Source: a virus (Duplodnaviria > Heunggongvirae > Uroviricota > Caudoviricetes). Taken from it: a DNA stretch of 64,000 nt. Location: the IMG/VR virus record IMGVR_UViG_3300013902_000006. One strand, 5' to 3'. Below the pieces are notes generated by a model. That model was not told where the DNA came from and searched no databases. It saw only the letters and a program-made list of their open reading frames with translations. Below, piece by piece: positions 11,694-37,453 of this stretch. Each line of letters begins with the position of its first letter. Positions within the stretch are counted from its first letter, which is position 1. The translations under genes and the position numbers were made by a program.

Positions 11694-12491
11694 TTACCTT
11701 AAACTAAAATCGTTTTTATTAATACCATTTAATATGTAATTCTCGTCATAATTAACATTATTAATATACATTATAGGTAAATTATGTTCTTTACAAAGTT
11801 TTTGCTTCGTCTTATCTCTTTCTTTTATTATTTTAAACTCTTGTAACGCCCATTCTTTTCCTCGTCCTGCGAAATCGACTGGTTCATAATGTTGTCGTCC
11901 TTGGCATTCAATCGCAATATGATAATCGGTCAAATAAAAATCTAAATATAAATTTATTTTATATTTAAGCCAAGTGAATGTTTTTTCTCTAACATAAGCT
12001 ATGTTGTTATTATCTAATAGGCTACAAAGATTTTTTTCCATCTTACTTTGTATTCTTCTGCCATTGCGACATTGTATACAGCCTCCATCCTTTGACGTAA
12101 TGTGGTCACAGGCAATTTTATGAAATAAATTTCCGCATCTTTTACATTTAATAGTTATAATAGAATGGCTATTTTCGTATTCATTTCTAATATTAGGATA
12201 GCAAAATAGGTCGTCAAACCTTTCATTAGTTATACTCAAAAAATGAATATAATTATTTTTTCTGAACGTCTTTGCATATTCTTTACCGCATATAGGACAA
12301 CCTTGTCCTTTTAAATGATTTTTAGGTGTTTGTGAAAAAATGCCATGAATAGGACATAGAATGTCCACTTTTGTTGTTTTATTTATAAAGTAAACATTAT
12401 TATATCCGTATTTCCCTTTATGGACGATTGTTGCATTATTTTTAAATTCTTCTTCTCTTTCTTTTCTTTTTAATTCATTCATTCTATACAA
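11694..12491 (-). CDS. Putative homing endonuclease: 2 zinc-ribbon (DUF723-like) repeats + PD-(D/E)XK/Vsr-like nuclease domain
   Basis: CPIHGIFSQTPKNHLKGQGCPIC repeat and C-terminal LYLDFYL..IAIECQGRQHY; lies inside the fractured polymerase locus. Confidence 0.75.
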   Translation of the reverse strand: MYRMNELKRKEREEEFKNNATIVHKGKYGYNNVYFINKTTKVDILCPIHGIFSQTPKNHLKGQGCPICGKEYAKTFRKNNYIHFLSITNERFDDLFCYPNIRNEYENSHSIITIKCKRCGNLFHKIACDHITSKDGGCIQCRNGRRIQSKMEKNLCSLLDNNNIAYVREKTFTWLKYKINLYLDFYLTDYHIAIECQGRQHYEPVDFAGRGKEWALQEFKIIKERDKTKQKLCKEHNLPIMYINNVNYDENYILNGINKNDFSLR

Positions 12492-12576
12492 TTTGTGTAA
12501 TTGTTTAATACACTGAAGTTATCGACAAAGTTACCGTTTATTTTCGTATTTACCAAGAATATTATACTAAAATCGG

Positions 12577-13986
12577 TTAAAACTCTATTTTTTTCTTCCA
12601 TTCGTATACAGAATTTCCGCTATCGAATATCCTATATGTCTCTTTTTCTATATCGATTATCTTCAAATATCGATGTCTATTAGCGACATAATAATAATTT
12701 GGTTCGGTATTTTTTAAGAACTTAAAACCGATATTTTTAAACTCATTTCCATTATCCCATCGTCTATCAATCTTGACTATAACAACGATAGGATTATTTT
12801 CATTCACGAAAAAATTAAAAAGTCCTTTTACACCATTTATTACCTTTGTATTTAGTCTATTGCAATATGTGACTAATTCATATTCGTCATCAGTTATTTT
12901 ATTAAATCCTAACAACGAGACCAATTCATTTTTATAAAAATTACCATATACTATTTGAGGATTAACGATATTATAAATTGAATTTGTTTTTAAAAAATCA
13001 ATACATTGTTTCGGAGATAACTTTTTAATAACACATAGTTCAGAGGAAATCTTATTTGGTACATTGTCTGTTATTTCTCTTATTTTAGATTTAACAATAT
13101 CTTTCTTAAATACCCATTCGTCTTCAAAAATATGCAGTAGTCGTATTCCTTGCTTAATACAATCTTCTGTCTTTTTCAAATGGTAGTGATTATTTTTACA
13201 ATATTCTTCACTATGCCATATTAAGCCATCGTGTTCTATTGCGATGTTTTTAGACGGAATATATATGTCAATTTCCTTGCCATCTGTCAATATTTTACGA
13301 TTATTCTTAATAACTTCGAGACCAAGTTCATTTTCGATGAAATCTGATATTTCATTTTCTTGAGTTGAGACAACATTGGAACAATAAGGACAACCGTGAC
13401 CGCATAGATGCTTGTTTGGCATTTGCCAATAATGATGACCATTGGCACATATTATTTCAATTGGAATCTTTGCCCCTTTGTATTCCGCAAGGCTATAATC
13501 CTCGGTATTTTTATGAATAATATTGGCTTTTTTGACGAACACCTCTTTTGTCATCAACATATTATTAGCGTTCTGTTCGGTAGCGCATTTAGGGCAGCCG
13601 TGACCTTGTAGATGTGAATATGCCTTCTGAGTGAAAATCCCGTGCTTTGGACAAATAATGTCAACGTCTTTAGTTGCTCCTTGATATACTGTTATTGTAT
13701 AACGATATTTAAAGTTGTGGACAATATTTGCCTTAGTAATAAATTGTTCGTTTGTAAACGATTGAGTTTTTGCCATATTTCGTTTTCCACATTTCGGACA
13801 CCCGCAACCTTTTAAGTGACTATACATATTTTGCAGAAAATCTCCATGTATGGGGCATGTTATTGTTACTCGTCTTTTAGTATCTTTTTTCGAGATATCT
13901 GTTTTTGTATAGTCGTAATAATCTCCGAATATATCTCTTGCTTTACTTTTAAATTCATCAGTCGATTTAATGACAGTTTTATACAT
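12577..13986 (-). CDS. Putative homing endonuclease: 3 zinc-ribbon repeats + PD-(D/E)XK nuclease + GNAT-like C-terminal domain (Hef-like)
   Basis: Three C-x-x-(x)-H-G..H-L-x-G-x-G-C-P-x-C repeats; EIDIYIPSKNIAIEHDGLIWH and HIFEDEW; C-terminal ELVSLLGF..KIDRRW..GF. Confidence 0.75.
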   Translation of the reverse strand: MYKTVIKSTDEFKSKARDIFGDYYDYTKTDISKKDTKRRVTITCPIHGDFLQNMYSHLKGCGCPKCGKRNMAKTQSFTNEQFITKANIVHNFKYRYTITVYQGATKDVDIICPKHGIFTQKAYSHLQGHGCPKCATEQNANNMLMTKEVFVKKANIIHKNTEDYSLAEYKGAKIPIEIICANGHHYWQMPNKHLCGHGCPYCSNVVSTQENEISDFIENELGLEVIKNNRKILTDGKEIDIYIPSKNIAIEHDGLIWHSEEYCKNNHYHLKKTEDCIKQGIRLLHIFEDEWVFKKDIVKSKIREITDNVPNKISSELCVIKKLSPKQCIDFLKTNSIYNIVNPQIVYGNFYKNELVSLLGFNKITDDEYELVTYCNRLNTKVINGVKGLFNFFVNENNPIVVIVKIDRRWDNGNEFKNIGFKFLKNTEPNYYYVANRHRYLKIIDIEKETYRIFDSGNSVYEWKKKIEF

Positions 13987-14010
13987 TGTTATTTCTTATT
14001 AAGATAGAAC

Positions 14011-14050
14011 AAATGATTCTACCGAGACAAATTATCTGATAGAATCATTT
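14011..14050. promoter_or_regulatory. Intergenic hairpin between polB-N and the first embedded nuclease gene
   Basis: Perfect 11-bp inverted repeat aaatgattcta / tagaatcattt; no U-tract on either side. Confidence 0.45.
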
Positions 14051-14061
14051 ATATGACTACA

Positions 14062-14628
14062 TTATAAAAAGTTAAATCCCGCTACAAATACCTTTGAATA
14101 GTTTTCAATTGTTATTTGTTTATCTAATCTCTTGCACAGTTCACTTGCAAATCGCTTTCTTATATTTACTTCACAATTTAAAACTTCGATAGGTATCTTC
14201 ATTGGGAATTTTACTGTGAAGTCTAATAATTTATTAAATTTCTCTTTTGTTATTTTTTTATCTCTTTTACAGAAAGGCTCTGATTTGTATTCTAATACCG
14301 TGTTTTTATTAATCTCGGATGGCTTTACCTTTTCTTTATTTTCATCAAACAACGAATGGTCTTCGGTTATGTCACTGACACAGGTCTTACTATTTCGTTT
14401 ATCCATGACACGGTACATATCTTTGCCCGTCTTGTGACGATATATGTAGCTTGGTTTATACCATCCACTTCGACATAAGACAGTATAATTTTTCTCAGTC
14501 GTATCGTATTCTCTACCTAACGCATCCTTGCGTATGTTATCAATATCTATTAATTCAGATATAGGTTTGATGTCAATCAAATTTGTATTATCATATTTGA
14601 TAAACATAGGTGTATCACCAGTAAAACT
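14062..14628 (-). other. Split intein N-fragment (188 aa)
   Basis: GD|SFTGDTPMFIK is block A with Ser1; SDITEDHSLF is block B (TxxH); ends at the polB-N stop codon. Confidence 0.9.
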
Positions 14629-16605
14629 GTCACCTACAATAGGATGATAATTGTATTCGTCATTAGGCGTATTAGTATTAAAACTTCCCAATGTGGAAAA
14701 ATGGCTAATCATAAGACGAAGCATTTGTCGACCACGGCAAGTTGTTTCCTCCGCACATTCCAAATCAGACCAAGGGAACACACTTCCAGAACCGTATGAT
14801 CCGAAGAAGCCATTGCCTGTTATCTTTAGAGGAAGTTGCATTTTGTCTGCCATCGCCTTTTGGCTTGATAACTGCGCTATCTTGACCTTTGTCTCCTTAA
14901 TTTCATTCTCATCTGTAATACCCTTTAATTTTTCTTTAAGTTCATCTGCCTCTTTACCATATTTGGCTTTCAGACCCTTATAATGTTCACGTTGTGTAAG
15001 AATATACTCCAAAAGGGCATTCATTACACCCATAATATCGATTGGACTCTTGATACCGAAAGTAAGAATAATCGAAGGATATAGTGAATTATAATCCAAT
15101 TTAACGATTCTATCCACATATCCGACTTTCAATAATCGTGACAATCCTCCTGTAAATTTCTTGGTTTCAATCAATTCAGGAATAGCCAGATCATGTTGAT
15201 AACTCCACGCCATCATAATGTATTTCCATATTGCAGCAGTACCCATTGTACACATTTTCTCATATGATACTGGGAGCATTTTACCTACCAAGAAATTAGG
15301 TTGATTATAACGGTTTTCTACCTTATCTGTCTCCCAAAGGTCATCCAACAGATAACGCTGAATTATATAGCGTCCTGTCGTTATTTCATACTCCTTACCT
15401 GTTTTATTATTAATTAATTTTTTATCTTCACGGGTGTACAGAGGAAACGTTCCATTATCATCAGTATAAGTCTTTTCAAGACGTTTATCATCTATCTTAA
15501 ACCATTCGCCATCGGTATCATTAAATGCATATGTAGGTGTCAAGTCCAACCACGTTGTATTAATTTCTTTGCCTGGTACATATACACGATTAGGCTTATT
15601 CATCTTTGAGTAGGCGCAGATATATTTAAGGGTTGCCTTTTTCATATTAGAATCGATTGCTTGCGCTCTACGAACGGCGAACAATGCATCAACGATATTA
15701 TGACCCCACATTATAGTAGGATAATAATACTCCATTTCGCCACCAAGTTTCAATACTTGTTGTTTCTTTTTCTTATATATCCCACGATTATAGAAAATTT
15801 TCTTGGTGAAATCCAACAACGAGCTTCCGTGGAGCTTTAATCGTTCATCAATAAAATACCAGTCGAAGTTCTCAGTATTATATCCTGCAATAATATCAGG
15901 TTGTTCATTATATATGATTTCAAAAAATTCCTTGAGACCGATTATCTCATTTTTGAACTTTTCTTCACCTTCGCCATCGATGGTAATGATTTTTTCAAAT
16001 CCCTTGTTTGTTCGTATACCAATCTGTGAAATCGCATGTATCTGTGGATTAAGACCCTCGGTCTCCAAGTCGAATGACATACGAATAAGGTCATCGTAAT
16101 CATCATATCCCTTAAACATTCGTCGACCTGTATAAATCATATATTGCTCTGTAGGTGCTACCGCAATAAATTCACGAAGTCCGTAATTAGCATCGGTCTG
16201 TTGCGGATATATTGGTCTACCAGCTTCCTTGAAAAAGTCCATGAATTTCTTATAGGACATCGCAAATTTCGCATAGAACAATACCCTATATCCATTCTCC
16301 ATTCTTGGGTGGATGTTTCCCTCATCGTCGGCGACACGTAATCCTTTACAAGTAATACCGTACATCGCCATTTTCTCCCTCAGAATCTTTCTGTCGCCAT
16401 CGAAAAGCTTTCGGGCTGCACTTTGTTTGCACCATACAAAAGGATAAAAATTATCCTTTAACATTTTCAACTTATTATTTTTTCCCCGAAAGATGACAGT
16501 CATTTTATCATCGTCATAAGACCCTTCTATCTTTATAATATGTTCCATCGGGTCTGTACCTGAGAGGAATTTATCGATATCCTCTTTTGTAATGTTATTT
16601 GCCAT
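14062..16605 (-). CDS. gp43: DNA polymerase family B, N-terminal half (3'-5' exonuclease + palm motifs A and B) with C-terminal split-intein fragment (IntN)
   Basis: ExoI SFDLETEG, ExoII YNTENFDW, motif A KLDYNSLYPS, motif B KITGNGFFG, then IVGD followed by intein block A. Confidence 0.92.
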   Translation of the reverse strand: MANNITKEDIDKFLSGTDPMEHIIKIEGSYDDDKMTVIFRGKNNKLKMLKDNFYPFVWCKQSAARKLFDGDRKILREKMAMYGITCKGLRVADDEGNIHPRMENGYRVLFYAKFAMSYKKFMDFFKEAGRPIYPQQTDANYGLREFIAVAPTEQYMIYTGRRMFKGYDDYDDLIRMSFDLETEGLNPQIHAISQIGIRTNKGFEKIITIDGEGEEKFKNEIIGLKEFFEIIYNEQPDIIAGYNTENFDWYFIDERLKLHGSSLLDFTKKIFYNRGIYKKKKQQVLKLGGEMEYYYPTIMWGHNIVDALFAVRRAQAIDSNMKKATLKYICAYSKMNKPNRVYVPGKEINTTWLDLTPTYAFNDTDGEWFKIDDKRLEKTYTDDNGTFPLYTREDKKLINNKTGKEYEITTGRYIIQRYLLDDLWETDKVENRYNQPNFLVGKMLPVSYEKMCTMGTAAIWKYIMMAWSYQHDLAIPELIETKKFTGGLSRLLKVGYVDRIVKLDYNSLYPSIILTFGIKSPIDIMGVMNALLEYILTQREHYKGLKAKYGKEADELKEKLKGITDENEIKETKVKIAQLSSQKAMADKMQLPLKITGNGFFGSYGSGSVFPWSDLECAEETTCRGRQMLRLMISHFSTLGSFNTNTPNDEYNYHPIVGDSFTGDTPMFIKYDNTNLIDIKPISELIDIDNIRKDALGREYDTTEKNYTVLCRSGWYKPSYIYRHKTGKDMYRVMDKRNSKTCVSDITEDHSLFDENKEKVKPSEINKNTVLEYKSEPFCKRDKKITKEKFNKLLDFTVKFPMKIPIEVLNCEVNIRKRFASELCKRLDKQITIENYSKVFVAGFNFL

Positions 16606-16676
16606 TTCTAATCCTTTAAATTAAACATACTCTGTAGTTAAGCCACAAAAATAGCGGCATCATACAAGATGTGCCG

Positions 16677-16688
16677 CAAATATACAAC
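16677..16688 (-). promoter_or_regulatory. Bacteroidota-type -7 promoter element (GTTG TATATTTG) upstream of polB-N
   Basis: Matches TAnnTTTG, about 70 bp upstream of the start codon. Confidence 0.55.
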
Positions 16689-16718
16689 TTTTAAATCAAA
16701 CTTTATAAGAATATCGTA

Positions 16719-17117
16719 TTAATTTGTGTTAATCATTGAATTATTAATATTTATTATCAATTCCTCGGCAATTGGGACTATCAATTCGCCTTTTGGGAAA
16801 CTATATTCTTCACTGTGTATGTCATCATTGAAAACTATTTTGAAAGTACCGACAAAACGTCCTTCCATTTTTGTATCTCTTGGTTTCCAAGAATACCTTA
16901 GTTTAACACGTTCTTCACAACCAATAGTATAAGTAATGATTTTGCATTTGGCATTCGATATTACTTTTATACCATTGTTTAGATTGGCCATCGTGAAGTA
17001 TACATCGGCATTTTGTAAGGCATAATATGCCTTTCTGTAATCATTTCGACCGTCTTGTATTAGTTCCATTTCCAAGTAAGGAAGCGTGGAGTTTTTATTT
17101 ATATTAAATTCTTGCAT
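16719..17117 (-). CDS. BppU N-terminal-like (baseplate-associated Ig-like) protein
   Basis: Pattern FNINKNSTLPYLEMEL..ADVYFTM..LRYSWKPRDT..GRFVGTFKIVF. Confidence 0.5.
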   Translation of the reverse strand: MQEFNINKNSTLPYLEMELIQDGRNDYRKAYYALQNADVYFTMANLNNGIKVISNAKCKIITYTIGCEERVKLRYSWKPRDTKMEGRFVGTFKIVFNDDIHSEEYSFPKGELIVPIAEELIININNSMINTN

Positions 17118-17129
17118 CGTTTATATCAT

Positions 17130-17609
17130 CTAATTTCGTAATTCTTTTCTCTTGAAATCAATTATCGCCTTGTTATCATATAGGAAATCACAACCTAATA
17201 TTCCATCGATTTGCTTTCCCGTCTTTATGAAGACTTCTCTTTTGACATTGTCAATATCAGTTATATAAAAAGTAACCGGTATACTGTCATTCAATAACGT
17301 GTTTGTTACAATAACCCCTTTTGAGATTGTACCGCTTATAGTGTTAATGTCAGATGAACTATTCTCGATGAAATTAAAGAAATCCATATGACTTAAATAA
17401 TAATCATCATCTATTATGGATACATCTGAACCAGTGTCGACTATAAAATTTACGCCTTTCTCATCTATATTATATTTTATGACAGGCATTGTGTTTTCAT
17501 ACACGAAGATATTTCTAAACCTTTTGACATTATCTTTATGACCGCTGTTGTTACAAGAGAATAGAAACAATGACAATAGGATGAAAACTATATGTTTTTT
17601 TAAATTCAT
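17130..17609 (-). CDS. Retropepsin-like aspartyl protease with lipoprotein signal peptide
   Basis: FIVDTGSDVSII catalytic motif and GILGCDFL; basic N-terminus, hydrophobic core and LFSC lipobox. Confidence 0.8.
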   Translation of the reverse strand: MNLKKHIVFILLSLFLFSCNNSGHKDNVKRFRNIFVYENTMPVIKYNIDEKGVNFIVDTGSDVSIIDDDYYLSHMDFFNFIENSSSDINTISGTISKGVIVTNTLLNDSIPVTFYITDIDNVKREVFIKTGKQIDGILGCDFLYDNKAIIDFKRKELRN

Positions 17610-17614
17610 TTCAA

Positions 17615-18955
17615 TTATAACTCTTTAGAAATAAATATCTTTTTAATTTCTTGAAGTAGATTTTCTTTTTCAGTATATATCGTATCAATATAATTTGTAG
17701 GTATATTTTTGGAATTTGAAAAATAAAATAGTTTAATCCCGTTTTCTGTACATAATTTATATTTTTCTTGGTCTCGCTTTATAGTTTCAGCATAAGCCTT
17801 TTCACCGCCGTAAAACTTAATTGGCTCAAAATGCTGTTCACCTTGATATTCAATCGCAACTTTTATTGACGGTATAAAAATGTCAATACTTTTTAAACCC
17901 AACCATTTAAACTTCTTTTCTCTAATAATTTTACAGTTAATATTATTTTTAATATATTCATATAGACAAGTTTCATTAATGTTTTTTTCTTTTGAACATA
18001 ATGGACAACCTACACCTGAAAGATGACTGTGTGGTGTTTGCCAAAACTCTCCATGTTCGGGACAGATAATGCAGACTTTATCTTCACTTGTTTTATATTC
18101 GACCTTTGAGTAATCGTATTTATTGTTGTGTACTTTGTTAGACCTTTCTACAAATATTTCTTTATTTAGTTTACTATATTGACCACATTTAGGACAGCCG
18201 TGCCTAAGAACATCAACGAACTTTTTAGTAAAAATGCCATGAACTTCATTGTTGTCATCGACACAATTACAATAGAATTTTCCTATTCCATTACGATTAG
18301 TATATGAGGTACTTATCGTATTAATATTAGGATATTTATTTTTAATTAAGTTAGTAATTTCGTTATACGAATATTTATAACTTTGATGGGAACACATTGG
18401 ACATTCATGCTTCGCCGAGACATGGGCATTTGGTGTTTGCCAAAACTCTCCATGTTCGGGACAAATGATACAGACCTTAGTACTATTGTTTACATACTTT
18501 GCATTACTGTAATCGTACTTGTCTCCGTGTACTTTCTTTGCTTTTTCTATAAATTCTTCTGTCGTTAGTTTTCCACAGCCTCCACATATAGGACAACCGC
18601 ATCCTCTAAGGTGTGATCTTGGTGTTTGCCAAAACTCTCCGTGTTCGGGACAAATGATACAAACCTTGGTGTTATAATTTACGTACTCGGCTTTTGAATA
18701 GTCGTATTTATTTCCATGTACTTTCCTCGCCTTTTCTATAAACTCATTTATACTTAATCTTTTTTCGGCAAGTTTACATAATTTACATCCTTGACCTAAC
18801 AGATGATTCATTGGAGTTTTCCAAAATTCTCCATGCTCAGGACAGATGATGCATACCTTTACACCTGTGTTATAATATTCAACTTTTGAATAATCGTATT
18901 TATTATTATATAATTCATTCGAACTTTTTATAAATTCGTCCTTGCTAATTTTCAT
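17615..18955 (-). CDS. Putative homing endonuclease: 5 zinc-ribbon repeats + PD-(D/E)XK nuclease
   Basis: Four [11 protein letters not shown] repeats plus one divergent repeat; SIDIFIP..VAIEYQGEQHFEPIKFYGG. Confidence 0.75.
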   Translation of the reverse strand: MKISKDEFIKSSNELYNNKYDYSKVEYYNTGVKVCIICPEHGEFWKTPMNHLLGQGCKLCKLAEKRLSINEFIEKARKVHGNKYDYSKAEYVNYNTKVCIICPEHGEFWQTPRSHLRGCGCPICGGCGKLTTEEFIEKAKKVHGDKYDYSNAKYVNNSTKVCIICPEHGEFWQTPNAHVSAKHECPMCSHQSYKYSYNEITNLIKNKYPNINTISTSYTNRNGIGKFYCNCVDDNNEVHGIFTKKFVDVLRHGCPKCGQYSKLNKEIFVERSNKVHNNKYDYSKVEYKTSEDKVCIICPEHGEFWQTPHSHLSGVGCPLCSKEKNINETCLYEYIKNNINCKIIREKKFKWLGLKSIDIFIPSIKVAIEYQGEQHFEPIKFYGGEKAYAETIKRDQEKYKLCTENGIKLFYFSNSKNIPTNYIDTIYTEKENLLQEIKKIFISKEL

Positions 18956-18998
18956 TGTTCCGATTTGGTTCTAACCTTCTTAAATAAATAGTAGGTAA

Positions 18999-20178: not shown

Positions 20179-20181
20179 TGT

Positions 20182-20206
20182 ATGGAGCTAAATTTCATAG
20201 CTCCAT
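20182..20206. terminator. Hairpin at a convergent gene junction
   Basis: 9-bp inverted repeat atggagcta / tagctccat overlapping the stop codon of the minus-strand nuclease gene. Confidence 0.55.
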
Positions 20207-21838
20207 TCTGTATATCATTCTACCACAATCGTATATTCGATATATACCACGTTCATACATAATATTGTGTTCGGTCTTGTTTTTATCAAAGCCTTGTTCA
20301 ACGAGTTTTCTTTTACAGTATTTTGATTTATTTTCACGTTTGTGACCTATTATATAGGTATAATCGACATCAGTATCTTTAATATGTTTGAAACCATTAG
20401 AAACAAAATTATTTTCGCAGTTCCAACGTTTATCGACATAAGATATGATATCTTTTGGTTTAAAGTCTAAAATAAAATGCCTTAATAGTTTTGAAAATCC
20501 TCCTATTACGGTTGTATTTAAAATTGTACAAAAATTACACAACTCATATGAATCACCTTTGATATTTTTAAACGACATTATTGCAACGATTTCATTATCA
20601 TATTTTAAACAATAATTGATAGAAGGAGCAAAAGCATATCCAAGATAATTTTTATATAAGAATTGTTTAACCGAAACCTTATCTAACTTTTGTAGTATGC
20701 ATTTTCTTGCGTAAATTTTAGAATGATTTTTACGCAATAAATTTCTGATTCTTGATTCAACTACCTCTCTTTTATTTAACCATTCGTCTTCGAATATATG
20801 GATTACTCGAATATCTTGTTCCTTACAATAATAAGTTTTCTTAGAATGATAATATTTATCTTTTTTCAATTCACAATGCCAATATAGACCATCGAATTCA
20901 AATGCCATCTTTTCATCTGGTATATAAATGTCTAATTCTTGACCATTTTTAAGCTTCAGTTTCTCAGTATTAACATTTAATTCAGATATAAAGTTATCAA
21001 CCTCTTTTTCTTCTTTGGAAAAGGTACAACGGCACTTAGGACATCCATAACCTTGCAATAAATTGGCAGGCGTTATTTCGAATAATCCATGTTTTCGGCA
21101 ATTTACCTTTATATGAGTGGAACTATTTTTATATATTAAATCCTCAAAGGTATATTTATCTCCATGTATCTGTATTGCATCTTTTATAAATTCTTCTCTT
21201 GTCTTTGAAAGTTTACTTGCCGCCGCAATATTTCCACATTTTGGGCATCCATTCTTTCTGTTTATATGCTGATAAGGGTATTGCCAAAATTCTCCATGTT
21301 CGGGACATATGATACAGACCTTAGTATCGTAATCAATGTATTCAGTTTTACTATAATCATATTTATCGCCATGTATCTTATGTGCTTCTTTAATTAATGT
21401 CTCTGTCGTCATAAAAGAATTATGTCCACATTTGGGGCAACCTTGTCCACTTAGATGCTTAGATGGAGTTTGTTCAAATATTCCATGTATAGGACATCCT
21501 ATTTTAACTTTTGTCATTGCATTAATATATTCAACTTGTTCATATTTATATCGTTCTTTATGTATTATTTTAGCTTTTTTAATAAATTCATTTGCATTAG
21601 ATTTTACTTTATTGGCATTAGATATTTGTGAACATTGACGACAACCGCATCCATTAAACAAAGATTTAGGTGTTATATAAAAGTCATTATGTGTAGGACA
21701 AATTAATTTAATCTTTGTCCCTATGTTAATATAATTAATATCTTCAACTCCCCCATACTTTTCTCCATGTATTTCCTTGATTCTTTTTACGACTTCGTCT
21801 TTAGTTAATTTCATAATACTGTAATTTACATCATACAA
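20195..21838 (-). CDS. Putative homing endonuclease: 4 zinc-ribbon repeats + PD-(D/E)XK nuclease + GNAT-like domain (Hef-like)
   Basis: CPTH/CPIH/CPEH/CRKH repeats; ELDIYIP..MAFEFDGLYWH and HIFEDEW; IYARKC..GGFSKLL..SYVDKRW..IYDCG. The start may be the ATG at 21814. Confidence 0.75.
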   Translation of the reverse strand: MYDVNYSIMKLTKDEVVKRIKEIHGEKYGGVEDINYINIGTKIKLICPTHNDFYITPKSLFNGCGCRQCSQISNANKVKSNANEFIKKAKIIHKERYKYEQVEYINAMTKVKIGCPIHGIFEQTPSKHLSGQGCPKCGHNSFMTTETLIKEAHKIHGDKYDYSKTEYIDYDTKVCIICPEHGEFWQYPYQHINRKNGCPKCGNIAAASKLSKTREEFIKDAIQIHGDKYTFEDLIYKNSSTHIKVNCRKHGLFEITPANLLQGYGCPKCRCTFSKEEKEVDNFISELNVNTEKLKLKNGQELDIYIPDEKMAFEFDGLYWHCELKKDKYYHSKKTYYCKEQDIRVIHIFEDEWLNKREVVESRIRNLLRKNHSKIYARKCILQKLDKVSVKQFLYKNYLGYAFAPSINYCLKYDNEIVAIMSFKNIKGDSYELCNFCTILNTTVIGGFSKLLRHFILDFKPKDIISYVDKRWNCENNFVSNGFKHIKDTDVDYTYIIGHKRENKSKYCKRKLVEQGFDKNKTEHNIMYERGIYRIYDCGRMIYRMEL

Positions 21839-30000: not shown

Positions 30001-30230
30001 ATGATAATACAACTGCCAAGTCATTCAGAAGTGCCGTAGAGCCTATTTTGGATGACATTAGAAGCAAGAGAGGATTGACTGATTATCGTTTGGAAATTGA
30101 TGATAGCCAAGAGGCAAGGGATAGACTTGAACTTCCTGCCAAGATTTATTTGAAATTACAGCCAAATCTCGAATACATCGATATTAGTTTTGTCATAACT
30201 CCTAGCGGCAGTAATTTTGATGAAATATAA
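27057..30230 (+). CDS. gp18: Tail sheath protein (T4 gp18-like, 1057 aa)
   Basis: N-terminal HVSPGIYTKEVDLS..GPAFQP; C-terminal INVLATPG, YPWFPAAGYSRG, IWGDKNLQ, RISKRRLL and LEYIDISFVIT. Confidence 0.93.
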   Translation: MANTSNNNARQTHVSPGIYTKEVDLSYASKSLGITTLGVVGETVKGPAFQPILIENWRQFQTYFGGTNTTKFKGSQYPKYELPYIAKTYLEQSQQLQVCRVLGLSGTNAGPAWVISAYSSTPDSTSLGYKKEKPVVIAVLRSRGEHKKAAFVKAANKEQGICEDVYEYDKLIYYAKSVSLKASKTLSLSDDCNPGYSTVTGDFTVNAINYGTFTIEVTTNEDVTKNYAVTLNPNEKNYILNVLGTDPEDGEAELYVEELYDVALKQLIERGEIDAIKQEIDSYKPVRIIPSHEAVNDLLVEDESMLRRKDVGKRYLYSKSESVNNEDGKPLKIHTSSDKGKTWVAADGVAGHIYTVVAFTKSDGTRDYYYGEYTGDNGKNFKTELLTTPTVENEVCSEAVNVLSDGMTYILDTDDVYPITLDMNNYKEQYRYATTPWVVSEMKGSAEHVELSKLFRFNTISDGNASNTEVKVSIENIDPTNGTFDVLVRSFYDTDNAPVVLERYKGCDLIPGSQNYIAYKIGSTDESYETRSNYITVEVNENERTKNSIPAGFLGYPVRNYGGRCVVGDGVAPKLANPYVEYNTNIDDDVRITRQYFGLSDIVGIDADVFSYKGAEAYNGLPQGLTPSFHLDSRILNGTPNENGEVTEDNVTQTVSVDGITGYQWVTVGKGNTTEFGTEPRIGDEETMMNTIYEDKRYRKFTMAFYGGFDGWDYYRSSRSNTDDFIYRKYRGNLDTTSGHGASFDVIKDPENYGFDATEKVITSDWYAYLSAIRQFANPSTIDINVLATPGIDYVNNKMLVDEVIDMVENERADCVYVVTTPDKPFGASDSESEMYTPVDAVDNLDDSDIDSNYACTYYPWVKTFDADNNQYIYLPPTKDVVKNFAYTDNTAYPWFPAAGYSRGQISGVNPKKVLKLSEQDELYSGRINFINKFASEGMRIWGDKNLQVAESQMNRISKRRLLVRIRKLLSIACIGLVFDPNDNTTAKSFRSAVEPILDDIRSKRGLTDYRLEIDDSQEARDRLELPAKIYLKLQPNLEYIDISFVITPSGSNFDEI

Positions 30231-30237
30231 TCAACTG

Positions 30238-30279
30238 ATAAAAGGTAATTAATAAAAATTACCTTTTATTTTTTTTTTT
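30238..30279 (+). terminator. Intrinsic terminator after the sheath gene
   Basis: 13-bp stem ataaaaggtaatt / aattaccttttat followed by a long T run. Confidence 0.8.
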
Positions 30280-30327
30280 GTTAAATTTATCTAAATAATT
30301 TTGTTTAATTAAAAAATAATAGTAATT

Positions 30328-31857
30328 TTGCATTTCATGAAAATACGCATTAAAATGAGAAAATTAGGAAACAACCAATATGAACATATAACACGGGACG
30401 AAATAATACGAAGATTCAATGAAGTACATAAAGGAAGGTACATTTATGATAATGTAGAATATCAGTCAATGAACAAAGAGGTTGAAATTATATGTCCTAA
30501 GCACGGTATATTTAAACAGGTACCACAAAATCATCTAAAAGGTCAAGGCTGCCCATTGTGTGCTAAAGAAAAAAGGAACAAAAAAGAACGAGAAAAAGGA
30601 TTACAAAAATTAATAGACGAAGGAAGTAAAAGGTTTAATAATAAATTTATATATGATGAAGTTAAATATATTAATAATAAAACTAATGTAACAATAATAT
30701 GTCCTATACATGGTAGAATACAAATGACTCCTTATGATCATTTACATAGTGAATTTGGTTGTAAACAATGCGCATTGGATGATATAGGAAGAAAACGAGT
30801 AAATAGATATAAAATAACATTTCTGAATAAGGCAAACGATTTACATAATAATAAATATAAATATTGTCTTGATGACTATAATGGGGTTGATTGTAAGATG
30901 AAAATAACGTGCCCAATACATGGAATGTTTATACAAACGATACATGACCACCTACAGGGTTGTGGCTGTCCTAAATGTAGTGTTAAACTATCCAAGGCAG
31001 AGGACGAAATTGCTGAAGCAATTAAAAATTTTGGAAACACTGATTTAATTCGAAGAGATAGAAACATATTAAGGCCAAAAGAACTCGACATCTATATACC
31101 GTCAAAGAAAATCGCAATAGAATATGATGGACTTATATGGCATAGTGAGAAGTTTAAAGATAAGGCGTTTAACTATCATTTAGATAAGACTGAAAAATGT
31201 GCCGAGAAGGGTGTTCGTCTAATCCACATATTCGAGGATGAGTGGCTTGAGAAGCCACAAATCATCAAGTCGATGCTCAGTAATATCCTCGGGAAGACAA
31301 GCGGCCGTCTGTACGCACGTCAGTGCGAGGTACGTGACGTTGATTCAAGGACTGCGATGCAGTTCCTTGATGATAATCACATACAGGGACGTTGCAAGGC
31401 AAAGTACCATTACGGACTTTATTATAACGGAGAACTCGTTTCGTTAATGACATTAGGAAAGACCCGTCAGCAGAGGAAGTACAACGAGAACTACGACAAC
31501 ACGTGGGAGTTGTTGCGTTTCTGCAACAAGTTGGACACGTCGGTCGTCGGTGGGGCAAGCAAGTTGCTCAAACATTTCATTAGTGAGGTAAAACCTCACC
31601 GAATCGTGACCTACGCTGACAAGCGTTGGAGTGTCGGCAACCTGTACGAGAGGTTGGGCTTCGCCCACACGCACGACAGCAAGCCGAATTACTTCTACGT
31701 GGTGGGTCAACACCGTGAGAATCGTTTCAAGTACCGCAAGGGTGAGCTTGTAAAGCAAGGGTACGATTCAGTCAAGTCCGAACACGAGATAATGCTTGAA
31801 CGTGGAATACCGAGGATATATGATTGCGGAACGATGGTGTTCGAAATGAAACTATAA
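30328..31857 (+). CDS. Putative homing endonuclease: 3 zinc-ribbon repeats + PD-(D/E)XK nuclease + GNAT-like domain (Hef-like)
   Basis: CPKH/CPIH repeats; ELDIYIP..IAIEYDGLIWH and HIFEDEW; LYARQC..GGASKLL..TYADKRWSVGNLY. The track start is TTG; an internal ATG (30337 or 30355) is more likely. Confidence 0.78.
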   Translation: MHFMKIRIKMRKLGNNQYEHITRDEIIRRFNEVHKGRYIYDNVEYQSMNKEVEIICPKHGIFKQVPQNHLKGQGCPLCAKEKRNKKEREKGLQKLIDEGSKRFNNKFIYDEVKYINNKTNVTIICPIHGRIQMTPYDHLHSEFGCKQCALDDIGRKRVNRYKITFLNKANDLHNNKYKYCLDDYNGVDCKMKITCPIHGMFIQTIHDHLQGCGCPKCSVKLSKAEDEIAEAIKNFGNTDLIRRDRNILRPKELDIYIPSKKIAIEYDGLIWHSEKFKDKAFNYHLDKTEKCAEKGVRLIHIFEDEWLEKPQIIKSMLSNILGKTSGRLYARQCEVRDVDSRTAMQFLDDNHIQGRCKAKYHYGLYYNGELVSLMTLGKTRQQRKYNENYDNTWELLRFCNKLDTSVVGGASKLLKHFISEVKPHRIVTYADKRWSVGNLYERLGFAHTHDSKPNYFYVVGQHRENRFKYRKGELVKQGYDSVKSEHEIMLERGIPRIYDCGTMVFEMKL

Positions 31858-31905
31858 TTTCTCGTTAGTCTGACTATTTATTTATAAGTTAAATTTTGTA
31901 TACAA

Positions 31906-32280
31906 ATGAAAAATAAGAATAGAGAAGCAATAAATGAAATGAAATTAATGTTGGATGAAAATAAAAGTCTAACGTTAGAGAATTTTGTAATGCCTCATAC
32001 GGAGAATGAGGAAGAAGATTTCGGTGGAGGAAATGATGAAGGAAGCTTTGGTGAAGAGACACCCGTAAATAACGATGTTGACAAGGCAGAGGATAATAAT
32101 TCCGACGATATAACTGGTATCGAGAAAGAACTCACTCAGATAAGAAAAATTGCCCTAAGTGTAATAAATAGATTGGCAGATAGACCAACTTGTCCTCAAT
32201 ATGACACGATGAAAAAGATATGGAATATGGTAGATAAAGCCATTGAACAGCCACAGACGGGTAACAAACCTGTTGAATAA
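31906..32280 (+). CDS. Hypothetical acidic protein (124 aa)
   Basis: ORF preceded by a TATTTATA motif; acidic linker and helical C-terminus. Confidence 0.6.
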   Translation: MKNKNREAINEMKLMLDENKSLTLENFVMPHTENEEEDFGGGNDEGSFGEETPVNNDVDKAEDNNSDDITGIEKELTQIRKIALSVINRLADRPTCPQYDTMKKIWNMVDKAIEQPQTGNKPVE

Positions 32281-32294
32281 TATAACAAAGGAAG

Positions 32295-33449
32295 TCAAGA
32301 CAATATGGCTTCCTTTAATTCTTTTAATGATGTTATAGTATTGTAACGGTATTCTAAATTATTATGAGCAAAATACAGTAGTTTAATATTATGTTCTCTA
32401 CATAGACGATACTTCAAGTCGTCTCTACGTTCAATTATTAATAGATTATTTTCACCTCCGAAAAAGTCAATTGGCTTGAAATGCTGTATTCCTTGACATT
32501 CGATTGCGGTATTTAAGTTAGGGAGATAAAAATCCAAAAATAGATTGTTTTTATCTTTTAACCAATCGAACGTTTTTTCCTGAATGAAATCAATATTGTT
32601 ATTAATTAGAAATAGTCTAACTTCTTCTTCCAAATGACTTTGATTACAAATAGGGCAACCGGAATGCCTATTCAAGAAGTTATCCAATAATACTTTGAAA
32701 TCTCCGTGAACAGGACAAGTCACTGTAATTTTTCCGTCATCATCTCTATTTTCCATAATGTCTTTGTCGTAAATATACGCACCTTTACCGAATGTGTCTT
32801 CAGCCCTTTTTATAAAGGCATTGTAGCTCATTCTTTGTTTAAGACCACCTTTTTTATAACGGCATAAATCACATCCTTGCCCTTTCCTTAAACTATAGTA
32901 GTTTAAGTTTCTAATTCCGTGTATGGGGCAAATGACCTTAATTCTATATCTTTCATCGTGCTCCGAAAACTTTGTTATACTAAAGTCTAGATCCTTGTGA
33001 ATTTTTGATAACTCAGACTTTACTTCATTGTCTTTCTTTGAAGAACCGTTGCAATATGGGCATATGCATCCTTCCATGAAATGTGAAGGTCTCATTTTGA
33101 ATTCTCCATGTTTCTTGCATTTTATAATGATTCTTCCCTTTTCATCCTTTGTGCCGACATCAAGTTCTGAGAAATCATAGTTTTCGATATCATCGTGAGT
33201 TAATTTAGATTTTTGGATAAATTTTTCATTTGTTAGTTTTCTTGTCTCTATATTCCTAAGAAAGCCGCATTTTCGACACCCACGTTTGAGATGAATATGA
33301 TTCCAATATGTCTGATAAAAATCTCCGTGTTCAGGACAAATTATATGTAATTTTTCATTTACATTGTTAATATCTGTAATATTATCGTAGTTATATCTAT
33401 CTCCGTGAATTTTAATCGCATTTCTTAAAATAGTATCTTTGTCAATCAT
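32295..33449 (-). CDS. Putative homing endonuclease: 4 zinc-ribbon repeats + PD-(D/E)XK nuclease
   Basis: CPEH/CKKH/CPIH/CPVH repeats; LFLDFYLP..AIECQGIQHFKPIDFFGG. Confidence 0.75.
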   Translation of the reverse strand: MIDKDTILRNAIKIHGDRYNYDNITDINNVNEKLHIICPEHGDFYQTYWNHIHLKRGCRKCGFLRNIETRKLTNEKFIQKSKLTHDDIENYDFSELDVGTKDEKGRIIIKCKKHGEFKMRPSHFMEGCICPYCNGSSKKDNEVKSELSKIHKDLDFSITKFSEHDERYRIKVICPIHGIRNLNYYSLRKGQGCDLCRYKKGGLKQRMSYNAFIKRAEDTFGKGAYIYDKDIMENRDDDGKITVTCPVHGDFKVLLDNFLNRHSGCPICNQSHLEEEVRLFLINNNIDFIQEKTFDWLKDKNNLFLDFYLPNLNTAIECQGIQHFKPIDFFGGENNLLIIERRDDLKYRLCREHNIKLLYFAHNNLEYRYNTITSLKELKEAILS

Positions 33450-33460
33450 TAGAATAAAAG

Positions 33461-33655
33461 TTATTTAATTCGTACTTTAAAATTCTTTTTTATGTTTTTC
33501 ATTTTCTTCTCAAGTCTTTGAATTCGTTTTGAAAACATTTTAACCATCGTGTTATATGTGTATCCACAAATACGATAGTTATTAACATCCTTATTAAACG
33601 AGAATTTATCAGTTATAAATCGAGAATATTTCAAGTTCTTCAATATGGAATACAA
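33461..33655 (-). CDS. Small basic hypothetical protein (64 aa)
   Basis: TTG-start ORF filling the gap between two co-oriented nuclease genes. Confidence 0.3.
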   Translation of the reverse strand: MYSILKNLKYSRFITDKFSFNKDVNNYRICGYTYNTMVKMFSKRIQRLEKKMKNIKKNFKVRIK

Positions 33656-33691
33656 TTCAGATACTTTTTATAGTGTCTTTAGTTATTGTTT

Positions 33692-34849
33692 TCATAATAA
33701 TTTTTTGTCTGATTTTAAATTATATAATGTTTCTCTTAAATTTTCTAATGTTTTAATAATCGAAAAATTACCTTCATAATTATCGCCGTTACTGAAATAA
33801 ATAACGTCGATGTCATGTTCACGGCATAGTCTGTGTTTAGTCTCATCTCGTTTGATGGTTTTAACAAAAGATTCCTCACCTCCGAAAAAGTCAATTGGTT
33901 TGAAATGCTGTATTCCTTGACATTCAATAGCAATATTATATTCTGATAGATAGAAATCTAAATACAGATGGTTTTTATATTTAAGCCAACTAAAGGTTTT
34001 TTGTTGCTCAAAATCAATATTCTCTTTCGATAAGAAATCTTTTATCTGTTCTTCAAGCTTACTTGTCTGGCATTTCTTACAACCGTAACCTTGTAAATGA
34101 GATTGTGCTATCTGTTCGAAGTCTCCATGTATAGGGCAAGTCACTGTTATTCTATTATGTAAATTACCATTTAATTCTGTTTTATTATATATGTATTTAT
34201 CCTTATGTATTTCTTTAAAACGTTTAATTAATGCCTCATCGTTGTAAGATAGACTTTTTGACCTTTTTATTATTCCGCACTTAGGGCAGCCTTGACCTAT
34301 TCGATGTTTTGATGGTGTAATTTTAAATTCTCCGTGTATAGGACAGATTACCGTAGCTTTTTCGTACATTTTATTATAAATGAAACTTGAATAATCGTAT
34401 TTATTTCCGTGGATTTCACGAAATTCACTTATGACGTCTTCCGTTGTTAAGTGTATACCACTACATTTAGGGCAGCCTTGACCTTGTAAATGATTCAATG
34501 GTGACATTTTAAAAACACCATGTTTCTTACATATGATGTCAACTTTGGTATCCATATTTTTATAATTAACTCTCGAATAATCATATACGTTTCCGTGTTT
34601 TTCGTTAAAACGTTTGATAACTTCGTCTTGTGACAATGACAATTTTTTGTTTTTCCTCAGATTACCGCACTTAGGACACCCATAACCACGCAGATAATCG
34701 GCGGGTCTGACGTAAAATTCACCATGTTCGGGACAGATAACACATATCTTCGTTTGAGAATTAATATAGACAACCTTGTCGTGTACATATCGTTCACCAT
34801 ATAGTTTAATGGCTTTCTCTATGAATATTTCCTTGGTATATTTTCTCAT
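33692..34849 (-). CDS. Putative homing endonuclease: 4 zinc-ribbon repeats + PD-(D/E)XK nuclease
   Basis: CPEH/CKKH/CPIH/CPIH repeats; LYLDFYL..IAIECQGIQHFKPIDFFGG. Confidence 0.75.
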   Translation of the reverse strand: MRKYTKEIFIEKAIKLYGERYVHDKVVYINSQTKICVICPEHGEFYVRPADYLRGYGCPKCGNLRKNKKLSLSQDEVIKRFNEKHGNVYDYSRVNYKNMDTKVDIICKKHGVFKMSPLNHLQGQGCPKCSGIHLTTEDVISEFREIHGNKYDYSSFIYNKMYEKATVICPIHGEFKITPSKHRIGQGCPKCGIIKRSKSLSYNDEALIKRFKEIHKDKYIYNKTELNGNLHNRITVTCPIHGDFEQIAQSHLQGYGCKKCQTSKLEEQIKDFLSKENIDFEQQKTFSWLKYKNHLYLDFYLSEYNIAIECQGIQHFKPIDFFGGEESFVKTIKRDETKHRLCREHDIDVIYFSNGDNYEGNFSIIKTLENLRETLYNLKSDKKLL

Positions 34850-34940
34850 ATAAATTTTTTCATTAAAAATTAATAAACAAAGATAATACTATTTATTAAA
34901 ATATACAAAATTGGATTATTGTAAAAATCGTTAATAATAG

Positions 34941-34948
34941 ATATTTAT
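34941..34948 (+). promoter_or_regulatory. Candidate late promoter motif ATATTTAT
   Basis: Lies 35 nt upstream of the tail tube gene. Confidence 0.4.
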
Positions 34949-34983
34949 AATAAAATAATAAGAATTTTAAATAGTTTTAAGAC

Positions 34984-35472
34984 ATGGGAGATTTACTTTT
35001 GAATATGCCTCTTGAATATGAGCCACTTCGCAAGAACCGATTTTTGCTTCGTTTCCCTTCCGATCTAGGCATTCAAGAGTGGTGGGTGTCAAATGCATCA
35101 AGACCTACGATTACAATGGGAGAAACCGAGATACCTTTCTTGAATACATCAACTTGGGTTGTCGGCCGTTATATTTGGGAACAGATTAATGTCACCTTAC
35201 GTGACCCTATTGGTCCAAGTGCGTCACAGGCAATCATGGAATGGGTACGTTTGTCTTCTGAAAGTGTAACTGGTAGACAAGGTTATGCAGTCGCATATAA
35301 GAGAGATTTGGTGCTTGAAATGCTCGATCCAACAGGATGTGCTGTTAGTCAATGGATAATTAAGAATGCCTTTATTGTCAGTGCTGCTGGCGGTGACTTG
35401 TCATATGATGACGATTCATTGGCAACTTGGGAGTTGACCATCAGACCTGACTATTGCATATTGAGTTACTAA
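34984..35472 (+). CDS. gp19: Tail tube protein (T4 gp19-like)
   Basis: RKNRFLLRF..ASRPTI..EIPFLN..WEQINVTLRDPI..EW..YKRDLVLEMLDPTG..GDLSY pattern; 162 aa. Confidence 0.88.
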   Translation: MGDLLLNMPLEYEPLRKNRFLLRFPSDLGIQEWWVSNASRPTITMGETEIPFLNTSTWVVGRYIWEQINVTLRDPIGPSASQAIMEWVRLSSESVTGRQGYAVAYKRDLVLEMLDPTGCAVSQWIIKNAFIVSAAGGDLSYDDDSLATWELTIRPDYCILSY

Positions 35473-35497
35473 TAAATGACATTCTTGATGACTATAT

Positions 35498-35537
35498 AAA
35501 TGTGAGATAGATTTCTATAATTTGTCTCACATTTTTT
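35498..35537 (+). terminator. Intrinsic terminator after the tube gene
   Basis: Stem aaatgtgaga / tctcacattt with further inner pairing, followed by a T run. Confidence 0.7.
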
Positions 35538-35556
35538 GCCTTTAGTTCAAAACTTT

Positions 35557-35568
35557 GTAGTATATTTG
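35557..35568 (+). promoter_or_regulatory. Bacteroidota-type promoter (GTAG TATATTTG) for the 619-aa nuclease
   Basis: TAnnTTTG at 35561-35568, with TTTG at 35535-35538 (22-nt spacer). Confidence 0.6.
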
Positions 35569-35593
35569 CGTCGCAATAGTAAATTGATAAAAG

Positions 35594-37453
35594 ATGCCAA
35601 AGATATATACGACAGAAAGCATAACAGAAAGATTTAAATTAAAGAACAGACAAGGTTTCGATTATTCCAAGGTCGATTACAAAGGAATGGGTATTCCTGT
35701 AACAGTAATTTGTCCTATCCACGGAGATATAGAGTTGACTCCCTCTCAGATATTAAGAAACGTTGGTTGCCCTATATGTACAAATGATAAGTTAACACAA
35801 CTTAGGACAAATAAAAATGATTTCATAAGAGATGCCATTAGTATGCATCAAGACAAGTATGATTATTCAAAGGTGGAATATAAAGGAGTAATAGAGAAAG
35901 TCTGTATCATTTGTCCCGAACACGGTGAGTTTTGGCAATCACCACGTATACATTTAAGGGGTTGTGGTTGTCCTATATGCGGCTCGGTAAAACAAAACGA
36001 TGCGACAAGACTAACTAAAAATGATTTCATACGAAAGGCGAGAGAAATCCATGGATACAAATACGATTACTCAAAAGTAAACTATATCAATAATTTAACT
36101 AAGATTTGTATAATCTGCCCTAAACACGGAGAGTTTTGGCAAACACCAAATAAGCATTTATTAGGTCAAGGATGTCCTATATGTGGAGGAACTAAAAGAT
36201 TAACAACGGAAGAATTCATTAGAAAGGCGAGAGAAATCCATGGAGATAAATACGACTATACAAAAGTAGACTACATAAATAATTCGGTCAAGGTTTGTAT
36301 CATTTGTCCTGAACATGGAGAATTTTGGCAAACGCCGCATAATCATCTGATAGGGCATGGTTGCCCTAAATGCAAGAACAAAAAGATTTCAAATTCAGAG
36401 ACGAAAACTACCGAAAAGTTTATATTAGAAGCGAGAGAAATCCATGGAGATAAATACGATTATTCGAGAACGAAATATCTAAGTGCCAAAGATAAAATCC
36501 TCATAATATGTCCCGAACACGGAGAGTTTTGGCAAGAGGCAAGTTCGCATCTAAGTGGTTGTGGCTGCCCAAAGTGTAACCATATAATTAGCAAAGCCGA
36601 AATGGAGATAACAGACTTCATTAAGAGTAGCCACGAAATAGAGGTAATTACGAATAACCGCAATATGCTTACGGGACATAAGGAGTTGGATATTTACATC
36701 CCTTCATTGAAAATTGCATTCGAATACGATGGAATGGTATGGCATAGTGATAGGTTTAAGATAGATTCAAATTATCATCTTAATAAGACGGAAGAATGCT
36801 TGAAACAAGGAATAAAATTATATCATATATTTGAATATGAATGGATGAATAAACGAGAAATCGTAAAACGTAAAATAGAACGGATATTGGGTATTTTCGA
36901 TATCGAAAACAATGTATTAAACAAATGTAATGTTATGGAGATAAATGAAGAAATGGCCAAGAATTTTAATGAGACAAACAATTTGCAAGGACATTTCGCC
37001 TCTTCGTTGTACATAGGTGGATTCTATAATAGCAAGTTAGTATCCGTGATGGCATTATTAAGAGAGAATAATAATGAATGGAGAATAACAAGACTCAGTT
37101 GCAATACAAATAATTACGTTGTTTTTAAAAAGTCAATGAATTATTTCATAAATAAATACAAACCGCACAAAATAGAAGCATTCGACGACAGGAGATGGGT
37201 TGCTGAACAAACTGATAGCTTATATAATAGATTGGGCTTCGATTTTGCGGATGTAATTTCACCTGATTATGGTTACACGAGAGGACAGAATGATTACATA
37301 ACAAAGACTTTCTTCGAAAAAGATAAACTGATTAAACAATATAGTAAAATGCACGAACTTACTGATGATATGACAGTGGATGAAATGATCAGAAAACTTG
37401 GTTATTATCGCATATACGACTGTGGACAATATAAATACGTGTGGAAACGGTAA
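35594..37453 (+). CDS. Putative homing endonuclease: 5 zinc-ribbon repeats + PD-(D/E)XK nuclease + GNAT-like domain (Hef-like)
   Basis: Five CP(I/E/K)HG repeats; [18 protein letters not shown] and HIFEYEW; AFDDRRW..LYNRLGF..IYDCG. Confidence 0.78.

Follow-up and report, generated by a model that had tools for sequence, protein, structure and literature searches.

When one gene family takes up a large part of a stretch of phage genome, the question arises of what these genes do there and of how their products choose their targets. This question is raised here by the virus record IMGVR_UViG_3300013902_000006 of IMG/VR (Caudoviricetes), of which a stretch of 64,000 nucleotides, called the window below, was analysed. 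In its interval 11694-37453, eight intact open reading frames (ORFs), numbered g1 to g8 in order of position (Table 1), encode proteins in which a tandem array of small modules precedes a nuclease domain. Their number, their coordinates and their summed length of 10,896 bp (42% of the interval) agree with an initial annotation of the same DNA, which had further proposed that each module may read a few base pairs through its variable residues.

The eight genes very probably belong to a single widespread family of free-standing homing endonuclease genes (HEGs), which joins the module array to a Vsr-like nuclease. This architecture is very common, and both it and the idea of modular specificity are already published (PMC10448857, PMC12350094). 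New in the present analysis are the family-wide list of variable columns, a contrast in their conservation between proteins that occupy the same site and a natural allele of g6 with fewer repeats.

Domain anatomy of the eight proteins

The repeats were counted with a hidden Markov model (HMM) built from those of the window and run on the eight proteins. It finds 2, 3, 5, 4, 3, 4, 4 and 5 copies in g1 to g8, which is the total of 30 first reported. Most copies (28/30) are strong, with domain E-values of 1e-16 to 1e-34, and two are degenerate, namely the second repeat of g1 (E = 0.0015) and the fourth of g3, of which only the C-terminal half is found (E = 0.027). A six-frame scan of the whole 64-kb window gave no extra copy. 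The module (~60 aa) has the consensus K-x-T-x3-F-I-x2-A-x3-H-x2-K-Y-D-Y-x4-Y-x-N-x3-K-V-x-I-I-C-P-x-H-G-x-F-x-Q-T-P-x2-H-L-x-G-x-G-C-P-x-C. The consensus of the initial annotation matches the alignment, and all the variable di- and tripeptides that it listed fall in columns 28-30 and 48-49. Among the 29 repeats that could be aligned, the metal-ligand columns C37, C56 and C59 are invariant and H40 is kept in 27.

The Pfam family DUF723 is matched by g2, g4, g5, g6, g7 and g8 (32.8-62.5 bits, cut-off 20.9), and DUF4379, described as a 'probable treble clef zinc finger', by g2, g3, g4, g5, g7 and g8 (>24.5 bits). In g1, DUF4379 is the sole match and lies under the cut-off (20.7 bits). The repeats also match the CapR family, and the DUF723/CapR-type identity first given to the module is supported by these three matches together. 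AlphaFold models were obtained for g7 (predicted local distance difference test, pLDDT, 83.7; predicted template modelling score, pTM, 0.38) and for one single repeat (pLDDT 89). The modelled module consists of a helix, a beta-hairpin whose turn bears the C-P-x-H knuckle, a second and short helix, and a C-x-x-C motif that opens the linker helix. In the g7 model, single modules are confident (~90 pLDDT per repeat) and their mutual arrangement is of low confidence (pTM 0.38). The modelled fold is treble-clef-like, as the description of DUF4379 has it, and not the classical zinc ribbon that had been named at first. The modules are thus of the CapR/DUF723/DUF4379 type, with Cys37, His40, Cys56 and Cys59 (alignment columns) as predicted zinc ligands.

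That modules of this type bind DNA is supported by published work on CapR: CapR binds DNA in gel-shift assays and loses binding in Cys-to-Ser mutants (PMC8096241). CapR, a transcriptional repressor of Vibrio PLE satellites, is a single module of the same type, with neither nuclease nor array. The ICP1 anti-satellite nuclease had been cited beside it as a domain relative; this does not hold, as Odn uses a RepA_N DNA-binding domain and not a CapR-type finger (PMC10448857).

Searches of solved structures gave only weak neighbours of the module, namely assembly factors of kinetoplastid mitoribosomes. The chain 6yxx_E2 matches the whole g7 model (E = 2.8e-4), and 6sga_Fd, a trypanosome mitoribosome assembly factor, matches one repeat (Z = 3.8). 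RAP domains of such mitoribosomal proteins are Vsr-like, and the nuclease part may be the cause of the other mitoribosomal matches of the whole g7 model.

In all eight proteins, the array is followed by a Vsr/I-Bth0305I-like nuclease of the EDxHD group, in one of two sub-types. The short type (g1, g3, g6, g7) has invariant D, E-x-Q-G, Q-H and R-D. The long, Hef-like type (g2, g4, g5, g8) has invariant E, D, E-x-D and W-H, and the invariant motifs D-I-Y-I-P, E-x-D-G, W-H and H-I-F-E. The acidic and histidine residues are invariant inside each type; in the prototype I-Bth0305I, the EDxHD residues are E170, D196, N208, H213 and D222. For the short type, the g7 model matches Vsr (1vsr, 1cw0) and I-Bth0305I (3r3p) with a Foldseek probability of 1.00 and template modelling (TM) scores of 0.54-0.61. 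For the long type, the sequence profile retrieves 3r3p (E = 0.012) and Pfam MTES_1575 (E = 0.007). The PD-(D/E)XK domain seen initially is therefore supported, in the form of a Vsr-like fold of that superfamily.

The four genes of the long type, and these only, carry a third, C-terminal domain of ~170 aa that is GNAT/Mom-like. Pfam Mom matches it just below the cut-off (26.5 against 27.1 bits), phrog_1384 ('Mom-like') matches at E = 3.3e-11, and a profile of the domain run against structures finds GNAT proteins (best 8iym, E = 0.0034). Alignment with Mom of phage Mu by hhalign is weak (E = 0.032, probability 1.6%). Several homologues bear the acetyltransferase families PF00583, PF13508 and PF13673. 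Both g4 and g5 have the G-x-G segment that is typical of acyl-CoA binding; in g8 and its orthologues it is deleted. In g5, the GC content steps up at ~31200, from 0.21-0.37 before this point to 0.45-0.53 over the nuclease end and the whole GNAT/Mom-like domain (31200-31857), which points to a recent gain of the C-terminal module from a higher-GC source. By a more remote reading, the domain would chemically modify DNA or the enzyme and so shield the carrier genome.

The family is abundant. A single-repeat profile retrieves 35,870 clusters at 50% identity (E <= 1e-3), of which 17,297 remain at E <= 1e-30; arrays reach 15 modules, and nearly all members are unannotated or misnamed 'HNH endonuclease'. 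As whole proteins, the eight match phrog_559, phrog_3339 and phrog_681 (E down to 1e-128), annotated 'HNH endonuclease', 'homing endonuclease' and 'endonuclease', the best match of g1 being phrog_559 (E = 5.6e-41). Proteins like g5 occur in 1,187 GenBank phage records, some under the name 'Hef-like homing endonuclease'. Those so named in the Tenacibaculum phages PTm1/PTm5 and in Pseudomonas PA5oct-like phages are 37-42% identical to g5 over ~90% of its length, and one AlphaFold DB entry of that name contains the repeat. Hef itself, from phage U5, is placed in the Vsr-like EDxHD family. Like the eight genes it is a free-standing Vsr-like nuclease gene between conserved genes; it replaces other HEGs at such positions, and its product cleaves nrdB (PMC2988022).

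Three other systems share part of this anatomy. In T5orf172 HEGs such as ICP1 Gp174, the same tandem module is strung out as beads on a string (repeated CapR/DUF723/DUF4379 fingers), and modular target recognition has been proposed for them (Barth et al., 2023; PMC10448857). Their nuclease, however, is of the GIY-YIG superfamily (T5orf172), whereas a Vsr-like fold is found here. Closer to the short-type genes g1, g3, g6 and g7 are homing endonucleases of phage group I and II introns, which, according to a paper in Nucleic Acids Research (2025), have the same architecture of three to five CapR-like domains of ~60 aa (related to CapR, DUF4379 and DUF723) with an EDxHD/Vsr nuclease of ~100 aa, and whose thousands of unannotated relatives are called there 'a large unrecognized outgroup' (PMC12350094). 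The intron enzymes described there lie inside introns of virion RNA polymerase genes, whereas all eight genes of the window are free-standing and intergenic, and four bear the GNAT/Mom-like domain. Term searches of the same paper turned up no per-position variability analysis. Lastly, I-Bth0305I (3r3p) has in common with these nucleases the Vsr-like catalytic fold and the conserved Glu, Asp and His, but is intron-encoded, binds DNA by NUMOD/HTH elements in place of zinc-finger arrays and draws its specificity mainly from the nuclease dimer.

Gain, loss and selection among relatives

Relatives of the locus were found as related contigs, labelled L001, L002 and so on; megablast of the region gave no match among GenBank phages. 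For five of the eight genes (g3, g4, g5, g6 and g8), there is in each case at least one close relative that lacks the gene and has flanking proteins 90-99% identical. L001, whose tail sheath and tail tube are 92.6% and 97.5% identical, lacks g5, g6 and g8. L003 and L006 lack g3, with a clean junction in a ~60-bp spacer between divergent genes. L004 lacks g2, g3 and g4, and its empty g4 site is likewise clean, being a hairpin between convergent genes.

The slots can also hold other genes. L003 has at the g4 site a different family member of 600 aa on the opposite strand, and L002 has an unrelated five-repeat member in the g5 slot. More generally, the same slots in L002, L003, L010, L013 and L014 are filled by other members that are only 35-50% identical and sometimes lie on the other strand. 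Orthologues are also found: that of g2 in L003 and L006 (76% identical), and those of g7 at the same site in L001 (67%) and L002 (83%), with ratios of non-synonymous to synonymous substitution (dN/dS) of 0.08-0.15. The 5' end of g1 is shared with a 622-aa family member of L003/L004. In other cases the occupant is foreign to the family, as with a 356-aa ART-PolyVal ADP-ribosyltransferase-like protein in the g8 slot of L001 (7849-8919), a 354-aa ORF without family match in the g3 slot of L004 (6877-7941) and, in the g6/g7 spacer of L002 (2413-3291), a 292-aa ORF that matches no family credibly. Such unrelated accessory genes in the same slots indicate that these are hot spots where genes in general are exchanged.

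The variable presence of the genes at intergenic sites is consistent with homing, one of the uses proposed in the initial annotation. In the proposed mechanism, the array would bring the enzyme to a long DNA site of a phage genome without the gene, the nuclease would cut close by, and recombinational repair would then copy the gene into the intergenic slot.

Selection was measured on orthologues rather than on paralogous repeats, because the latter have a mean nucleotide identity of 52% and are saturated at synonymous sites. Across orthologues, dN/dS is 0.06-0.15, alike in array and nuclease; for tube and sheath it is 0.01-0.03. These values indicate purifying selection on the genes and a retained function. 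Decaying pseudogenes were considered and rejected on the strength of intact frames, conserved catalytic residues and these dN/dS values, with g1 as a possible exception.

Purifying selection on eight copies that occupy 42% of a 26-kb core-gene region could also be expected if some or all of them had been domesticated, whether to attack co-infecting phages or satellites, to drive recombination at module boundaries or, with an inactive nuclease, to regulate through DNA binding as CapR does. There are precedents, since CapR is a domesticated single-finger repressor and T5orf172 nucleases have been repurposed against satellites. Moreover, HEGs mark boundaries of genetic exchange (PMC10448857), and unrelated accessory genes share the slots of the relatives. 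However, the catalytic residues are kept in all eight genes, no satellite or competitor target has been identified, and sporadic, slot-specific presence and absence with fast turnover is the classic pattern of selfish free-standing HEGs. Domestication is therefore an unlikely account of these genes.

Variable columns and a possible reading of DNA by the array

If the genes are HEGs that dock through their arrays, the question becomes that of the contribution of each module to target choice. Identity between repeats of the window averages only 39% (range 16-73%), so that most non-core positions differ. Within these repeats entropy peaks at columns 29-31, 48 and 52. Family-wide, on 617 non-redundant repeats from 120 homologues, the most variable columns are 54, 48, 49, 30, 52, 29, 46 and 44 (2.9-3.6 bits), and a scaffold of 12 columns is at least 90% conserved. 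The two variable windows described at first thus both contain entropy peaks, but the second belongs to a larger set that runs from column 44 to column 54, and variability is by no means restricted to the two.

Columns 44, 46, 48, 49, 52 and 54 alternate with the conserved F43, Q45, P47, H50, L51, G53, G55 and C56, and the segment 44-54 extends from the second hairpin strand over the short helix into the loop ahead of the second knuckle. This alternation, taken with the secondary structure, suggests that they form a single exposed ridge. Asn, Ser, Arg, Lys, Gln and His are frequent at the six columns, and the combinations of residues there are nearly all distinct (763 signatures in 771 non-redundant repeats).

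The key test compared two groups of orthologues that occupy the same site, those of g7 and g8, which are 66-69% identical overall. At the six columns, same-site orthologues differ in 11/54 comparisons (20%), and repeats of one protein in 80/96 (83%). At the other variable columns the figures are 79/161 (49%) and 76%, at scaffold columns 15% and 33%, and at the loop columns 29-30 44% and 94%. The contrast of 20% with 49% between same-site orthologues is significant (Fisher p = 2e-4). In these two groups, columns 44, 46, 48, 49, 52 and 54 look like specificity determinants, and columns 29-30 like an ordinary, unconstrained loop. The role of specificity positions first assigned to the variable residues is therefore partly supported for the second window, within the six columns, and not for the first. 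Repeat-specific recognition would come mostly from the putative exposed ridge that these six columns form, by way of the short helix, between the second hairpin strand and the second zinc knuckle.

A natural allele of g6 illustrates how arrays change. The gene, absent from L001, is present in L002 as an allele that is 86% identical over the aligned residues and lacks residues 114-247, that is, exactly two repeat units. Both breakpoints fall in the conserved C-x-x-H-G, one in repeat 2 and one in repeat 4, and the hybrid repeat that remains takes its N-terminal half from the former and its C-terminal half from the latter. A comparable in-frame repeat deletion, by recombination between repeats, is reported in gp174 of ICP1 (PMC10448857). 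Homologues carry 3-15 repeats separated by linkers of variable length, and in AlphaFold DB the module is also fused to GIY-YIG, DUF559, DUF2726, AP2 and HTH partners. New specificities would arise by point changes at the six columns and by unequal recombination at C-x-x-H-G that adds, deletes or hybridises repeats.

Several observations weigh against this interpretation, or narrow it. The conservation pattern comes from two gene groups within a single phage lineage. It is not seen in seven more pairs of homologues (55-71% identical), where change at the six columns is at least as frequent as at the other variable columns; over the nine pairs pooled, the six columns differ in 197/330 comparisons, against 513/949 for the other variable columns. 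Gene context was read for two of the seven extra pairs: the members of one have unrelated surroundings, and those of the other share synteny on a single side. Conservation when the site is shared and replacement when it is not is what is expected of specificity residues, although this rests on few cases. The single-repeat model has no convincing solved analogue (best Foldseek E = 0.25, best VIA-align Z = 3.8), so that the DNA-facing side of the module is deduced from sequence periodicity and residue type. In the long-type nuclease, the last acidic residue of EDxHD aligns ambiguously, with a His at that place in the HMMER alignment. The second repeat of g1 is degenerate, and the gene may be decaying. 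Finally, the specificity of I-Bth0305I comes mostly from its dimeric nuclease domain, the contacts of its N-terminal DNA-binding region being largely non-specific.

This last point raises the possibility that the array is mainly a clamp of low or no specificity, serving affinity and spacing, and that specificity resides in a dimeric Vsr-like nuclease. In I-Bth0305I, the nuclease dimer reads a 14-bp pseudopalindrome, and the N-terminal region is largely non-specific over a footprint of ~60 bp; in the case of I-TevI, direct hydrogen bonds between the zinc finger and DNA number just two. The lack of conservation of the variable positions in the seven further pairs is in keeping with such a clamp. 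On the other hand, columns 44-54 are near constant in each orthologous repeat and 83% different between repeats, and a generic clamp needs no repeat-specific residues. Furthermore, up to 15 modules seem too many for affinity alone, and dN/dS is as low in the array as in the nuclease. A mere clamp thus appears somewhat unlikely.

At the other extreme stands the strong form of the original proposal, in which a few base pairs, fixed in number, are read by the variable residues of every repeat in an additive and portable manner, as in a natural scaffold of the kind of zinc fingers (ZF) or transcription activator-like effectors (TALE). Modules that are predicted to fold independently (~90 pLDDT per repeat, with a pTM of 0.38 for the whole), discrete hypervariable polar positions conserved among same-site orthologues, the in-frame deletion with its hybrid repeat in g6 of L002, and the fusions of the module to GIY-YIG, DUF559, DUF2726, AP2 and HTH partners all speak for it. 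The six columns, however, do not draw on a limited residue alphabet, as the number of signatures indicates, linker lengths vary, and the first of the two proposed windows (29-30) acts as a free loop. The pattern is heterogeneous across homologue pairs, and in I-Bth0305I it is the nuclease dimer that carries most of the specificity. Context dependence is moreover the rule even for C2H2 fingers, which counts against a portable code. Engineered zinc-finger and TALE nucleases (ZFNs and TALENs) are alike in outline, with a tandem DNA-reading array on a nuclease, but their folds are unrelated and their codes are experimentally established, so that the comparison is one of analogy only. A strict code of fixed base pairs per repeat is accordingly improbable, and it is just as hard to credit that six exposed columns per CapR-like module read bases largely additively and portably.

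Neighbouring features and significance

The coordinates of the eight genes and of two neighbouring features are collected in Table 1. For three of the eight genes the listed start is TTG, and an ATG a few residues downstream is the more plausible start. The genome piece that carries g8 is at least 243 kb long.

Table 1. Genes of the module-array family in the window and two neighbouring features, with their domains (window positions).
Feature	Position	Strand	Description
g1	11694..12491	-	265 aa; 2 repeats 12066-12464 (second degenerate); short-type Vsr-like nuclease 11697-12065
g2	12577..13986	-	469 aa; 3 repeats 13378-13971; long-type Vsr/I-Bth0305I-like nuclease 13060-13377; GNAT/Mom-like domain 12580-13059
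g3	17615..18955	-	446 aa; 5 repeats 17993-18952 (repeat 4 degenerate); short-type nuclease 17618-17992
g4	20195..21838	-	547 aa; 4 repeats 21029-21811; long-type nuclease 20711-21028; GNAT/Mom-like domain 20198-20710
g5	30328..31857	+	509 aa; 3 repeats 30385-30981; long-type nuclease 30982-31299; GNAT/Mom-like domain 31300-31854
g6	32295..33449	-	384 aa; 4 divergent repeats 32643-33449; short-type nuclease 32298-32642
g7	33692..34849	-	385 aa; 4 repeats 34067-34843; short-type nuclease 33695-34066
g8	35594..37453	+	619 aa; 5 repeats 35603-36580; long-type nuclease 36581-36901; GNAT/Mom-like domain 36902-37450 without G-x-G segment
Split family-B DNA polymerase	10028..16605		two ORFs (847 aa and 551 aa), with g1 and g2 in the gap between them
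Aspartyl-protease ORF	17130..17609	-	159 aa; lipoprotein-like N-terminus ending in Cys; retroviral-type aspartyl protease domain

The ends of the two polymerase ORFs at the junction resemble intein halves. A family member lies between the polymerase halves also in L003, L004, L011-L015 and L024. In L007 and L008, no family member was found next to the N-terminal half; the C-terminal half was not found on these contigs, and the junction itself is unseen.

The aspartyl-protease ORF matches Pfam RVP (23.6 bits, cut-off 20.7) and Asp_protease_2 (24.3), and is an unusual cargo for a phage. It is kept at 74% identity in L003, L004 and L006, and no similarity match to it was obtained in more distant relatives.

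Taken by itself, the locus is ordinary, in that it bears a heavy load of a common and already described type of phage HEG. Its value lies in the comparisons that it allows. For five genes, filled sites can be matched with empty ones among the relatives (candidate empty alleles in L001, L003 and L004); in addition there are a pair of g6 alleles with four and two repeats and a short list of residues that may determine specificity. Together, these make modular reading of DNA directly testable. Should the modules read bases additively and portably, they would constitute a third natural programmable DNA-recognition scaffold, whose code could be read from thousands of natural pairs of HEG and empty site. 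If the array does read DNA modularly, the module would be of interest to genome engineers; if it does not, the genes would still be useful for marking hot spots of recombination in the genomes of huge phages.

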